The notes under the pieces: model-generated
Told to the model about the DNA's origin: nothing
Databases searched by the model: none
What the model saw: the letters and a program-made list of their open reading frames with translations, nothing else
Position numbers and translations under genes: made by a program
In this document: piece after piece, positions 3,745-7,587 of the stretch
How the letters are laid out: each line of letters starts with the position of its first letter
Position numbering within the stretch: the stretch's first letter is position 1
Source: Caulobacteraceae bacterium UBA5005
GTDB lineage: Bacteria; Pseudomonadota; Alphaproteobacteria; Caulobacterales; Caulobacteraceae
Length of the DNA stretch: 64,000 nt
NCBI GenBank assembly: GCA_002398405.1
Contig: DGYN01000062.1
Span: 6,746-70,745, forward strand
Reading direction: 5' to 3'

Positions 3745-4172
3745 AACGCATCCGGCGGCGGGGCTCGAAGGAAACGCCGGTCTATGAGGCGACGACGCGG
3801 GATGTCGTGGTGCGCGTGGTCGCCAACTACATGCCCGAGCAGTCCGATCCCGAGCGCGGCCGCTGGTTCTGGGCCTATGTGGTGGAGATCGAAAACCACG
3901 GCAATGATGTGGTTCAGCTGGTCTCCCGCCACTGGATCATCACCGATGCCTTGAACCGGGTGGAGGAGGTGCGCGGCCAGGGCGTGGTCGGCGAGCAGCC
4001 GACGCTCAAGCCGCGCGACGCCTTCCGCTACACCTCGGGCTGCCCCTTAAGCGCGCCGTCCGGGACCATGCGCGGCACCTATCAGATGATCACCGACCTG
4101 GGCATCATGTTCGACGCCGCCATCCCGGAGTTCAGCCTAGACCTTCCAGGCGCGAAAAGAATCGTCAACTAG
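3741..4172 (+). CDS. apaG: ApaG (DUF525) protein
   Basis: 143 aa. Contains YEATTRDV.V.V...Y.PEQSDPERGRWFWAY.V.IEN.G...VQL.SRHW.ITDA...V.EVRG.GVVGEQP.L.P...F.YTSG. Its ATG overlaps the metZ stop (ATGA). Confidence 0.85.
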   Translation: MKRIRRRGSKETPVYEATTRDVVVRVVANYMPEQSDPERGRWFWAYVVEIENHGNDVVQLVSRHWIITDALNRVEEVRGQGVVGEQPTLKPRDAFRYTSGCPLSAPSGTMRGTYQMITDLGIMFDAAIPEFSLDLPGAKRIVN

Positions 4173-5209
4173 CGGCCGGCGTTCATGCGGGATTCGATGT
4201 CGGCCACGATCTGGCGCGTGTCGTTCACGGCCAGCTGCCGCATCTCGGCGGCCTCGAGGGGGGTGATGCTGGCGATATCGTTCTTGGGCTTGGCGAGCAG
4301 CATGTTCAGCTCGGCTTCCAGGTCCGCCTTGCGCACGATCTGGATGTAGCCGTTGGAGCGGTTGCGGATCAGATAGTCGCCGTTCTTGTAGGCGGCGTAC
4401 CGTTCCTGATCGATGGCCGACAGCGGGTTGGTCTGCGCCGGGGGCCGGGGAGCAGCGCCGCCGTTGGCGGTGCGGCGCGATGCCTCGGCGTTGTCCCTGA
4501 ATTCGCCGTCGATCAGCCCTTCCACGTTCCGCCCCCGCCGCGCGCCGACGTCGTACATCTCGTTGAGCTCGCGCTCCCGGCGTTGCTGAGCTTCCCGTTC
4601 CAGATTGGCGACCCGTTGCGCCTGGTCGTTTCGTGTCGATTGGTTGTAGGCGTCGCGATCCTCCCTGAGCTGAGCGCGCCGGAACTCCTCCTCGGCCCTA
4701 TCGCGCTGAGCCTGGGTCAATCCCTGGGCGTCATACTGCGCCCTGCGCTGTTGCTCGGCGAGTCGCCGGGCGCCGTCGCCGCGTCTTGCTTCCTCGAAGG
4801 GCCGCGCGAACTCATTTCTCGCCTGCTGCCGCAGCACTTCGGTGTTTTTCCGGCTTTCCTGGGCGGCCACGCTGGCGAAGACCGGGACCTGGCTGAGTTC
4901 GAGCTTTCCCGTCGCCACCAGTTCGTTGATCAGGCCGTTGAACTGTTCGGGGCTGAGGGCGCGATAGACCGTCCTACCGCCTATGGTTTGGGCGACGACC
5001 ACGCCGCCGCGTTGGGCGGACAGGAGCGTCTTCTCGGCCTCGCTGAGGCCCCCCTCCGCCTGGACCTGACGGATCGCCTCCTCAACGACCCCGCGCGCGG
5101 TTCGCTGCCTCTCGGCCTGCGTACGCCCGGGAAACGCCATCTGAGCGAAGGCCGGCGCGGCGGCGCAACACAGGGTCAGGGCGAGAGTCACACTATGCGC
5201 CGGTTTCAT
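4169..5209 (-). CDS. Secreted hypothetical protein, paralog 1 of 4 (B-like + A core + charged R/E/Q-rich linker + C-terminal module C)
   Basis: 346 aa. Signal peptide MKPAHSVTLALTLCCAAAPAFAQ. It has the 55-aa core shared with the three upstream genes and a C-terminal module shared with paralog 4. Its ATG overlaps the stop of paralog 2 (ATGA at 5207-5211). I recognise no family. Confidence 0.7.
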   Translation of the reverse strand: MKPAHSVTLALTLCCAAAPAFAQMAFPGRTQAERQRTARGVVEEAIRQVQAEGGLSEAEKTLLSAQRGGVVVAQTIGGRTVYRALSPEQFNGLINELVATGKLELSQVPVFASVAAQESRKNTEVLRQQARNEFARPFEEARRGDGARRLAEQQRRAQYDAQGLTQAQRDRAEEEFRRAQLREDRDAYNQSTRNDQAQRVANLEREAQQRRERELNEMYDVGARRGRNVEGLIDGEFRDNAEASRRTANGGAAPRPPAQTNPLSAIDQERYAAYKNGDYLIRNRSNGYIQIVRKADLEAELNMLLAKPKNDIASITPLEAAEMRQLAVNDTRQIVADIESRMNAGR

Positions 5210-5895
5210 CAGTACCCCCGTCCCGCGCCGCGGCTGCGCTCGTTCATTAGGTTGGCGGCGGCCCGGTTGGATTCCTGCAACGCATTGGCGACAAAGGCGG
5301 GCGCATCGGCCTGGGACAGCTGGCCGGTCGCGACCAGTTCGGCGACCATGCTGGTGAACTCCTGGCGGCTAACGGCGCGCACCCTCTGCTGCCCGGCCAC
5401 CGACTCGGTAATCAAAAAACCTCCGTTCTGGGTTAGCATGAGGTTCTGATCGCGCTGCTGCGCATAGGCCATCTGCGCCTGACTGGGGGCGACCATCGGC
5501 GATGGGCCACCCCGTAGCGCCGCTTCGATCGCCGCGCGCTCCGCGGGCGTGGGTTGGCGGTAGGCGGAGCCGCCCGCCGCGCCAAACGGATCCATCGCCG
5601 GCCCAGTCGGTCCCGGGACCAGGTAGGGATTGTAGCCCGCCGGGTTTACGGGGGGCGGGGTGTAGGGCGGGACGTAGGATGGGGGCGCCGGCGGCGCATA
5701 GCCTCCCTGCGGAGTGTAGGCGCCTTGCTGAGGGGGGACGGTCCCGCCGAACAGGTCGGGGCGGAGCGCGCCCAGCAGCTGGACAGCCTGCTCAAGAGTG
5801 CTCTGAGTGGTTTGCTGCGCCTGTGCCGGGGCCGCCACGGCGGCGGCGCCTGCGGCCGTGAAGACCAAGCTCAATAGGGCGAGACGTAGCGACAT
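5209..5895 (-). CDS. Secreted hypothetical protein, paralog 2 of 4 (Pro/Tyr-rich region + B + A core)
   Basis: I start it at ATG 5895 (MSLRLALLSLVFTAAGAAAVAAPAQAQ), which has an AGAAGAGGG RBS. The ORF track begins 2 codons earlier, at TTG 5901. It contains PTPAERAAIEA and the 55-aa core. Confidence 0.7.
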   Translation of the reverse strand: MSLRLALLSLVFTAAGAAAVAAPAQAQQTTQSTLEQAVQLLGALRPDLFGGTVPPQQGAYTPQGGYAPPAPPSYVPPYTPPPVNPAGYNPYLVPGPTGPAMDPFGAAGGSAYRQPTPAERAAIEAALRGGPSPMVAPSQAQMAYAQQRDQNLMLTQNGGFLITESVAGQQRVRAVSRQEFTSMVAELVATGQLSQADAPAFVANALQESNRAAANLMNERSRGAGRGY

Positions 5896-5910
5896 TTCCA
5901 AAGCCCTCTT

Positions 5911-6441
5911 CTAGCGACCGCGGTGGATAACGGTCATGGCGGCCGCGCCCTGGCCTGGCGGGCCGCCGTTCATGGGCGGCGCGTCGGCCGCAGACGGCAG
6001 GGCGTCGAGGCGGCGGTTGTCATCGGCCCGCTGATTGGTGAGGTCGGCGAAGGTCCTGGCCGACTCCTGCCGCGCATAGCGGACGAAGACGTTGACCTCG
6101 TCGGGCGCCAGTTCGCCGGTCACCACCAGTTCGGCGACGAAATCGGCGAACTGATCGCGGGTCAGGGCCACGACCCGCTCCTTGCCGGCGATCCGCTCGG
6201 TGATCAGGATATCGCCCCGCTGAGCGGCCATGATGGTCTCATCCCGCTGCCGCCAGGCGGCGGGGTCGGGGGGCGGCGCGTTGTAGACCTGCCTCGACGG
6301 CTGTGGCGCCGCCGGCGGACGGGTCGCCGCCTCGATCACCGCGCGCTCGGCCGGGGTCGGCGCGCGGTAGGTCTGGGCGAGCGCGGGCGCGGCAAGGGTT
6401 GCGGCGGCGAGGATGACAAAGGCCAAACGGGTCACTTTCAT
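5911..6441 (-). CDS. Secreted hypothetical protein, paralog 3 of 4 (B + A core)
   Basis: 176 aa. Signal peptide MKVTRLAFVILAAATLAAPALAQ. Contains PTPAERAVIEA and the 55-aa core. Confidence 0.7.
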   Translation of the reverse strand: MKVTRLAFVILAAATLAAPALAQTYRAPTPAERAVIEAATRPPAAPQPSRQVYNAPPPDPAAWRQRDETIMAAQRGDILITERIAGKERVVALTRDQFADFVAELVVTGELAPDEVNVFVRYARQESARTFADLTNQRADDNRRLDALPSAADAPPMNGGPPGQGAAAMTVIHRGR

Positions 6442-6444
6442 CTC

Positions 6445-7587
6445 CTACCGGCCGGCTCTCTGTCGGGCTTCGATTTCTTGAACGATTGTCCTGGTGTCGT
6501 TTTCGGCCAGGCGCCGCATGTCCGCGGCCTCCGCCGGCGTGATTCCGCCGATGTCTTCCAGCCCGGGTTTCTGCGCCCGGCCCTTGGCGAGCAGGTCGGC
6601 CAGTTCAGCCTCCATCTCCCTCTTGCTGACGATCTGGATCACGCCGTTGTCGCGCCGGCGGATCAGATAGTCGCCCCGGCCGACCGCATCCATGTAGCTC
6701 TGATCCTGGGCGGAAAGCGGAGCCAGGGGGACCGCTGTGATGGGGGAGGTGGTGTTGGACGCGGTAGAGGGCGGATTGTACCGGCCGCCGCTGCCCCGGG
6801 ATTGCTCCTCGAGCATCTTCCTGAAGTTTTCCGCCTCCATTTCCTTCTTACGCTGGGTCTCATAGGCGTCGAGCACCGATGCCCCGGCATTGAAGAAGGG
6901 GTTGTTGCTCCCCCCGGCGACGGCCGCCGCGCCTTCGGCCTTGGCGGCGTCCTTCATGTCCTGGGGAAGGAGGTCCGACCCGAAGCCCTTGGGCAGCAAG
7001 GCCCCAATGCTTGAGGCCACTTCGCCCAAACTGGGCGCGGTCCCGCGGGCGTTGGCCCTGGCCGCGTCCGCGAATTCACCCCTCCGCAGCTCGGCCTCGA
7101 TCGCGGCCCGCTCGGCGGGCGTCGGCGCGCGGAGGCGGCCGTTCTGATCGTATTGCTGAGGGCCCGGGGCCGGCGACGGCCCGTTGAGGGCGTTGGCGGC
7201 CTGCCGCCGGATGGACTCTTCCCAGCCCGGAACAACGCCTCGCTCGCGCAGCACATTGTACCTGCGGTTGGCTTCGGCGGTGTTGCGATTGGATTCCTGC
7301 CGCGCGTATTGGACGAAGGCGGCCTCGTCCCGAGGACTAAGGGCGCCGCTGCGCTTTAGGCCATTGACCAAGTTGTCGAACTCCACCGGCGTCAGGGCGA
7401 CTAGACGCTTCTTTCCGCCGATCGTCTGTTCGACCAGGAACCCGCCGGTGTTGGCGACGGCAAGCGTTTGGATCACATGGTCGGCGGCGGCCGATCTCTG
7501 CTGCGGCGTCGATTGGGGCAGGGCGAGAGCGGGCAGGGCCGCCCCGGCCGCGGCGATCAGCGTTATGAACGCGATACGCTTGCTCAT
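6445..7587 (-). CDS. Secreted hypothetical protein, paralog 4 of 4 (A core + B + linker + module C)
   Basis: I start it at ATG 7587 (MSKRIAFITLIAAAGAALPALALPQ). The ORF track starts at TTG 7605. It contains the core, PTPAERAAIEA, and a C-terminal GDYLIRRRDNGVIQIV...ITPAEAADMRRLAENDTRTIV..RAGR module. Confidence 0.7.
   Translation of the reverse strand: MSKRIAFITLIAAAGAALPALALPQSTPQQRSAAADHVIQTLAVANTGGFLVEQTIGGKKRLVALTPVEFDNLVNGLKRSGALSPRDEAAFVQYARQESNRNTAEANRRYNVLRERGVVPGWEESIRRQAANALNGPSPAPGPQQYDQNGRLRAPTPAERAAIEAELRRGEFADAARANARGTAPSLGEVASSIGALLPKGFGSDLLPQDMKDAAKAEGAAAVAGGSNNPFFNAGASVLDAYETQRKKEMEAENFRKMLEEQSRGSGGRYNPPSTASNTTSPITAVPLAPLSAQDQSYMDAVGRGDYLIRRRDNGVIQIVSKREMEAELADLLAKGRAQKPGLEDIGGITPAEAADMRRLAENDTRTIVQEIEARQRAGR

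Follow-up and report, generated by a model that had tools for sequence, protein, structure and literature searches.

In this study, we have analysed a 64,000-nucleotide stretch of contig DGYN01000062.1 from Caulobacteraceae bacterium UBA5005 (the whole of which we call the window), and we describe in it four consecutive minus-strand open reading frames (ORFs), g1 to g4, which occupy positions 4169-7587 directly downstream of hslO (7685-8593). Judged from their sequences, they appear to form a lineage-specific operon of four exported, non-enzymatic paralogs. They constitute an undescribed family of a familiar kind, namely lineage-specific exported paralogs with a motif of unknown function. The unit shared by the four proteins would comprise about 85 amino acids (aa) and fold into a helix, a β-hairpin and a SHOCT-like helix-Gly-helix hairpin with a prolonged second helix. 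In g2 and g3 it would be present once, preceded by a T-P-x-E-capped helix (B) and a Pro-rich linker, and in g1 and g4 twice (A and C), the two copies being separated by a long linker that is Ala/Gly/Ser-rich in g1 and R/E/Q-rich, probably helical, in g4.

The tightly packed arrangement on the minus strand, 3' of hslO, is as the first-pass annotation of this DNA had described it. The first gene, g1 (6445-7587), encodes 380 aa from an ATG at 7587 and runs from a leader through A, B and the Ala/Gly/Ser-rich linker to C, which we read as a diverged second A (A'); g2 (5911-6441, 176 aa) consists of a leader, B, a Pro-rich linker, A and a short tail; g3 (5209-5895, 228 aa) has a Pro/Tyr/Gly-rich tract between its leader and B, followed by A; and g4 (4169-5209, 346 aa) is made of a leader, A, the R/E/Q-rich, predicted helical linker and C (again A'). 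The gaps measured between the genes, 3 nt for g1/g2 and 15 nt for g2/g3, are those announced beforehand (3-15 nt), but the ATGA overlap claimed for one junction turned out to be a TGATG at g3/g4, with a 1-nt overlap at 5209. An alternative start of g2, a GTG at 6435 with AGGAG 6 nt upstream, the usual spacing, would give 174 aa and is the one used by the gene call of another assembly (P0002, 174 aa), the ATG at 6441 standing immediately behind the AGGAG. At the far end of the block, the minus-strand stop of g4 overlaps with that of apaG (DUF525), which converges on it from the plus strand, in the palindrome CTAG (4169-4172), which leaves no space for a terminator between both genes.

The four ORFs are genuine genes, and they are old duplicates under purifying selection. 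Their reading frames are real, because the GC content at third codon positions (GC3) far exceeds that at second positions (GC2), with 0.81-0.88 against 0.47-0.57 across the four and 0.83 against 0.51 in g1, because all of them are called as genes on two independent assemblies (g1 without a Pfam match on the source contig), because the paralogs resemble one another, and because the nonsynonymous divergence (dN) is lower than the synonymous divergence (dS) in every paralog comparison. The identical locus occurs in contig J055_10000150 (74 kb) of the Joint Genome Institute (JGI) metagenome 3300001199 and in the Logan assembly of SRR2043728. High-GC DNA does yield many long spurious ORFs, and many overlapping ORFs are found in the window; nevertheless, the idea that g1-g4 are chance ORFs of this sort, to which we give next to no credence, is effectively refuted by a paralogy at the protein level that reaches E values down to 6e-32, by the frame-specific excess of GC3 over GC2, by the occurrence of homologous domains on three unrelated contigs and by the high confidence at which the C domain is modelled. 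With dS values of 0.5-1.6, and with paralogs that share 66-81% of their nucleotides where they match best, the duplication dates far back and the copies have been maintained, as had been supposed from their moderate nucleotide identity. The dN/dS ratio is about 0.1-0.18 in motif B and, relatively high, 0.4-0.66 in the A domain.

Module A, a gapless core of 55 aa in a MAFFT alignment, is common to the four proteins, all on the minus strand: it lies at 7282-7446 in g1 (aa 48-102; counted with the helix before it, the whole unit spans roughly aa 28-115), at 6052-6216 in g2 (aa 76-130), at 5260-5424 in g3 (aa 158-212) and at 4844-5008 in g4 (aa 68-122). The alignment returns exactly the invariant columns that had been listed for it, which in the numbering of g1 are G48, G58, A64, F70, L77, G81, L83, F91, A95 and QES97-99. 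The similarity holds under composition-corrected scoring, with pairwise blastp E values for module A of 6e-14, 1.5e-12, 1.4e-11 and 2e-10; scored in the same way, g2 and g3 match each other over 119 aa (E 2.6e-28), and g1 and g4 over their full length (E 6e-32), being collinear throughout. When eight A domains are compared, namely those of the four paralogs, the two copies in P0005, and those of P0010 and P0012 (the relatives described below), the invariant positions are one Gly, one Phe and one Ser only, and the QES triplet, invariant in g1-g4, is retained neither in these relatives nor in C.

Exact copies of motif B, (R)(A/Q)PTPAERA(A/V)IEA, lie in g1 (7084-7131, aa 153-168, RAPTPAERAAIEAELR), g2 (6319-6366, aa 26-41) and g3 (5512-5559, aa 113-128), in each case on the minus strand, and the back-translated DNA pattern of the motif matches three times in the window as against 0 in 100 shuffles. 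The degenerate fourth copy attributed to g4 fares differently: in a gapless scan with a position-specific scoring matrix, the best window of g4 (aa 162-177) is at chance level (P=0.48, 5000 shuffles), and the B-like candidates at the N-terminus of g1 and at that of g4, the latter weaker than aa 162-177, do not rise above shuffles. However, residues 162-177 align positionally with the B of g1 in the collinear g1-g4 alignment, and by its position this segment is plausibly a decayed B.

Module C is restricted to the first and last genes, as had been noted, at 6448-6720 of the minus strand in g1 (aa 290-380) and at 4172-4426 of the minus strand in g4 (aa 262-346), and it is 61% identical between both. 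By eye, C resembles A, the preceding helix included (AQDQSYMDAVGRGDYLIR against RQRDETIMAAQRGDILIT, and ITPAEAADMRRLAENDTR against LSPRDEAAFVQYARQESNR). An hhalign comparison of the eight-sequence A alignment with the two C modules gives P=8e-4 and a score of 23.5 over 63 columns, in the register found by eye, whereas 200 column shuffles reach a mean of 10.0 (sd 1.8, maximum 17.5) and the reversed control 8.7. Searched with a profile hidden Markov model (HMM) of A, the C module of g1 beats all but 3 of 5000 shuffles, and that of g4 all but 143 of 5000. Predicted structures, compared by the order of their elements, agree with this result. The AlphaFold model of g1 is poor as a whole (mean predicted local distance difference test score, pLDDT, of 58), with C at about 90; its A part shows a helix at residues 28-46, strands at 50-56 and 59-65, and helices at 67-80 and 85-115, and its C part a helix at 293-304, strands at 307-310 and 317-320, and helices at 322-337 and 351-378. 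The model of the B and A portions of g2 follows the pattern of g1 (mean pLDDT 74, rising to 86-90 in the three 10-residue blocks, residues 81-110, that span the two helices). Thus, A and C would share the order helix, β-hairpin, helix, helix. Given the profile-profile score, the shuffle controls and the matching order of secondary structure in the models, C most likely originated as a second copy of A that has since diverged, and not as an independent module.

In this regard, g1 can be read as A, then B, a linker and A', and g4 likewise with B seemingly decayed, while the part of g1 formed by B, linker and A' corresponds to the B-linker-A unit of which g2 and g3 consist. The first-pass annotation had proposed three modules shuffled among the proteins. 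As read from the sequences, the parts are instead one repeated unit and the short helix B, and the tandem duplication of genes and of domains would account for all of the architectures, so that no shuffling is needed; the collinearity of g1 and g4 points the same way.

The absence of any nameable family, the other prominent claim made for this block, was borne out in part. The full proteins have no family match in Pfam, NCBIfam, PHROGs (none better than E=0.04) or PADLOC, their isolated domains have none in Pfam, no PDB sequence is significant in single-sequence or profile searches, and Foldseek finds nothing better than E=0.18 when the g1 and g2 B+A models are compared with the PDB and the A model with BFVD. 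The helix pair of A and C, however, is SHOCT-like. Our exhaustive profile search (described below) matched three proteins of about 1000 aa, P0007, P0009 and P0011, with E values of 9e-8 to 8e-6 over 8 stretches each; they end in a TrbI domain, and their central region has many tandem repeats of the SHOCT-like family PF22746 (SHOCT-like_DUF2089-C type; E 1e-22 to 8e-50). Against a profile made from 18 of these repeats, module A (four sequences) scores 40.5 in hhalign (probability 95.6%, P=1.3e-8; maximum of 200 shuffles 14.9, reversed 11.0), and module C scores 24.2 (60.8%, P=8e-5; shuffle maximum 15.7) at a position equivalent to that of A. Since both match the repeats of PF22746-positive TrbI proteins, the cores of A and C are related at the profile level to the SHOCT-like helix-Gly-helix hairpin, here following a helix and a β-hairpin, and the shared match links A and C transitively. 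In the models, the two helices with a Gly expected of such a hairpin would be those at residues 67-80 and 85-115 in A and 322-337 and 351-378 in C; G81 is invariant in the paralogs, and C carries an insertion of 8-14 aa in the hairpin turn. We also considered B as one half of a SHOCT-like hairpin, which was ruled out (hhalign P=0.09).

The SHOCT domain proper (PF09851) consists of about 30 aa forming two amphipathic helices with a strongly conserved Gly between them, is fused to many different partners without an established function, and lies within about 50 aa of the C-terminus in 89% of SHOCT proteins (Eberhardt et al. 2013, PMC3581485). The hairpin of g1-g4 is near the C-terminus as A in g2 and g3 and as C in g1 and g4, but unlike the predominantly extreme C-terminal PF09851 it is also internal, as A in g1 and g4, and it gives no direct HMM match. 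With the SHOCT-like repeats of the TrbI proteins, g1-g4 share the helix-Gly-helix pattern (L/V)(S/T)xx(Q/E)(F/Y)xxx(V/L)xxLVxxGxLxPxxxxxF(V/L), the hairpin adjoins a long spacer-like sequence in both, and both are expected outside the cytoplasmic membrane, which for TrbI/VirB10-type proteins reflects the assumption that the region from the N-terminal hydrophobic segment to the TrbI domain lies in the periplasm. There are differences as well: the TrbI proteins have 8 or more tandem repeats whereas the window proteins have the hairpin once or twice each, apparently set in a larger unit with a helix, a β-hairpin and a long extension of the second helix, and the latter proteins lack, by Pfam and hydropathy, the TrbI domain (PF03743) and a membrane anchor. 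No type IV secretion genes were found within 10 kb of the block.

All four proteins were said to carry Sec signal peptides, and their N-termini are indeed leader-like, with K/R followed by a 12-aa stretch of hydropathy 2.1-2.6 and then ALA, AFA or AQA; in g1, the Sec-type leader covers aa 1-22 (MSKRIAFITLIAAAGAALPALA, 7522-7587, minus strand). These calls come from sequence inspection and a hydropathy heuristic, and by them g1-g4 appear to have what Sec export requires (an n-region with positive charge, then a hydrophobic h-region and an AXA cleavage site), which predicts that they are exported. Behind the leader, a hydropathy scan shows no hydrophobic or transmembrane-like segment in any of the four. 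The mature proteins contain 0 Cys, 0-1 His and 0-1 Trp. Among their linkers, the Pro/Tyr/Gly-rich tract of g3 (aa 45-108) is 30% Pro, and the charged linker of g4 (4490-4834, minus strand, aa 126-240), which contains the residues 162-177 discussed above, is 55% R/E/Q/D/K.

The block sits in a variable spot and is specific to its lineage. The HslO encoded in the window is at most 81% identical to that of any species-representative genome, its best matches being in Caulobacteraceae and Brevundimonas metagenome-assembled genomes. In its closest relatives (HslO about 80%), the gap between hslO and apaG is nearly empty, with 14 bp in one locus (L005) and 149 bp in another (L007), and in an equally close one (L006, HslO 81%) it holds about 2 kb of unrelated sequence. 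Across 58 Caulobacteraceae loci (L005-L062), the gap from hslO to apaG or metZ ranges from 10 bp to 6.5 kb and is filled with unrelated genes, and neither tblastn nor HMMs of A, B+A and C detect an A or C domain in the hslO-apaG gap of any of these 58 loci. It is this combination, of a gap that is nearly empty in L005 and L007, unrelated genes elsewhere and no A or C there, that identifies the block as a lineage-specific filling. In other loci, we observed that the gap encodes, for instance, a regulator of the MarR type (L008-L012), the signal-peptide dipeptidase of Caulobacter segnis (L019 11037-12284) or membrane proteins (L006 and L047). The genes within 10 kb of the block are of the housekeeping type: argD, argF, hslO, apaG, metZ, a sulfate ABC transporter, a GSP_synth-family gene and flagellin.

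Relatives of the unit are rare elsewhere. An exhaustive HMMER profile search of 1.84 billion representative proteins (E<=1e-3) gave 13 matches, 4 of them the proteins themselves and 3 true relatives, in which the A unit is found with E values of 6.6e-22 (P0005), 6.6e-06 (P0010) and 6.4e-05 (P0012). In P0005, two A copies are followed by a run of 11 Pro and by a C-terminal domain of about 100 aa without family assignment, and P0012 is its frameshifted ortholog, whose gene call is frameshifted or truncated and lacks the N-terminal part; the loci of P0005 and of this ortholog are L003 3568-4818 and L004 7696-8846. Both have a conserved synteny, upstream of an MFP and RND efflux pump, TspO, BMFP and YbjN, whereas P0010 adjoins folK and has a further C-terminal region, without family assignment, behind its A domain. 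P0005 and P0010 have signal-peptide-like N-termini. Although the two A copies followed by a Pro run make P0005 resemble the two-domain proteins g1 and g4, the three relatives differ from the window proteins in being single genes with other C-terminal domains and no B or C, located in unrelated contexts. The rarity of the A domain argues against a widespread system, and our results give no sign of a major new one. Three further matches, P0006, P0008 and P0013, were rejected as repeat or low-complexity false positives that score through many weak stretches; among them are a perfect tandem repeat of 991 aa, a Frag1-like membrane repeat and a protein with Ig-like repeats, and E values near 1e-19 can arise from repeat proteins in this way. 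A genome pattern scan for module C gave 67 matches, none of them a relative, and a metagenome scan with the back-translated B found 7 near-identical contigs only and no further copy of the operon.

From their sequences and by analogy, our tentative preference, held with somewhat less than even confidence, is that the exported g1-g4 proteins act as structural or binding proteins of the periplasm or envelope. The shared domain would serve as a protein-protein contact module, either with itself or between paralogs, and the role of extended spacers would fall to the Pro-rich and the charged-helical tracts, as in the SHOCT-like stretch of TrbI/VirB10-type proteins. That the proteins appear to be non-enzymatic is suggested by the scarcity of candidate catalytic residues, because only Gly, Phe and Ser are invariant, with 0 Cys and 0-1 His, and because no enzyme family matches them (Pfam and NCBIfam for the full proteins, Pfam for the isolated domains). 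TonB has a Pro-rich and TolA a charged helical (domain II) spacer that spans the periplasm, and the window proteins may be likened to them in that a predicted exported tract, Pro-rich in g3 and g2 or charged and helical in g4, joins small globular domains; they differ from TonB and TolA in that no sequence or profile similarity to them was detected, and in lacking a membrane anchor as well as partner genes of the Tol, Ton or Exb type. In a bolder version, which we regard as a long shot, the four paralogs might assemble through the β-hairpin and the SHOCT-like domain into a hetero-oligomeric periplasmic scaffold, a new and self-contained envelope structure.

Several points weigh against this picture. 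The codon usage of g1-g4 is somewhat atypical, with an index resembling the codon adaptation index (CAI) of 0.48-0.64 as compared with 0.61-0.79 in the neighbours, which could reflect low expression or a foreign origin. The link between A and C draws on just two C sequences and comes with a low HH probability (24%), and the AlphaFold models were built from alignments of 2-4 sequences. None of the SHOCT-type Pfam models considered (PF09851, PF22746 and PF08044) matches g1-g4 at E<=1 with the full proteins or at E<=10 with the isolated domains, all staying below the gathering scores, and the best result of this type, the A domain of P0010 against PF22746, reaches E=0.026 and 14.6 bits where the cutoff is 27. 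Oligomerisation was proposed for SHOCT by those who described it, but their initial experiment gave no support (PMC3581485); with no established function and an unsupported oligomerisation, the similarity to SHOCT brings no function with it. Finally, what speaks for a binding and spacer role, and for an association of the paralogs, is their composition, their architecture and analogy.

The variable spot itself suggests another explanation, in which g1-g4 would be cargo left from an earlier horizontal insertion (the remnant of a prophage or island, for example), now decaying or without function: real ORFs that contribute little to the cell. The block is absent from L005 and L007, its GC3 and CAI-like index are slightly under those of the neighbours, homologs are almost absent anywhere, and the B motif seems to have decayed in g4, all of which this explanation would account for. 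Nevertheless, we consider it unlikely, in view of four reading frames that are intact, tightly packed with a 1-nt overlap and subject to a dN below dS in every paralog comparison, of a GC content that resembles the host's, and of the lack of mobile-element marks by the block, where no integrase, transposase, tRNA or flanking repeats were found and no PHROG family matches beyond the limit given above.

Another possibility is that the proteins are secreted or surface structural or adhesive proteins, for matrix or attachment, rather than periplasmic ones. No outer-membrane secretion system, autotransporter domain, sortase-like signal or type I or type II secretion genes adjoin the block, Pfam finds no β-barrel or repeat-adhesin domain in the proteins, and there are no homologs in other Caulobacteraceae, which makes this reading rather improbable even though Sec leaders, Pro/Tyr/Gly-rich and low-complexity tracts and the lack of Cys would suit it, and even though surface structures are well known from the Caulobacteraceae. 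The four genes might also be an orphan array of periplasmic immunity proteins against competitors' periplasm-acting toxins, the cognate toxin gene not having been kept; this would suit fast-diverging paralogs in tandem that have Sec leaders, occupy a hypervariable spot between genes, are of extremely narrow distribution, lack apparent catalytic residues and show a relatively high dN/dS in the A domain. To this proposal we assign a low probability: in the 10 kb to each side of the block, the source contig has no called gene for a toxin, type VI secretion, contact-dependent inhibition, Rhs or another delivery system, the proteins match no PADLOC, Pfam or NCBIfam family, P0005 and P0010 each stand alone in an unrelated context of the housekeeping type, and small globular immunity proteins are typically without the long Pro-rich or charged-helical linkers and two-domain architectures seen here.

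If the reading of g1-g4 as exported paralogs built from one duplicated unit is true, they illustrate, in a compact natural case, how a new family of exported proteins grows by duplication within and between genes at a variable spot. They would also place a SHOCT-like element in Sec-exported proteins, which could help to approach the function of a widespread motif, and should the scaffold version hold, SHOCT-like hairpins would gain their first functional handle, in the form of defined protein-protein contacts in the cell envelope. The reach of these statements is limited to a family in one uncultured Caulobacteraceae lineage plus three distant singletons; they imply no phenotype or partner system, and they make no long-standing question testable.

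Regarding transcription, the sequence is compatible with read-through from argD-argF-hslO or with a promoter in the 97-nt spacer between hslO and g1 (7588-7684, minus strand), either of which is possible. On the coding strand, no terminator-like or consensus sigma-70 site was seen in this spacer or within the block, and no Rfam family matches upstream of or within the block. A TTGACGG that overlaps the hslO stop is similar to the Caulobacter -35 consensus and may be a putative -35 box of this type.

Some minor observations concern the surroundings and the B motif. An exact PTPAERAAIEA is the C-terminal tail of DnaJ on the 7 near-identical, high-GC metagenome contigs mentioned above (L063-L069, e.g., L064 406-437, minus strand), a DnaJ whose gene sits just upstream of an hspR-like MerR gene; this match to B probably reflects convergence on a T-P-x-E-capped helix rather than homology. 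Within the window, positions 1844-2413 encode a DUF1190 protein that has a Met-rich tract (FFMPMMMGMMMGQMM) and is paired with the GSP_synth-family gene at 686-1837, and the flagellin gene lies just beyond the window start on the source contig.

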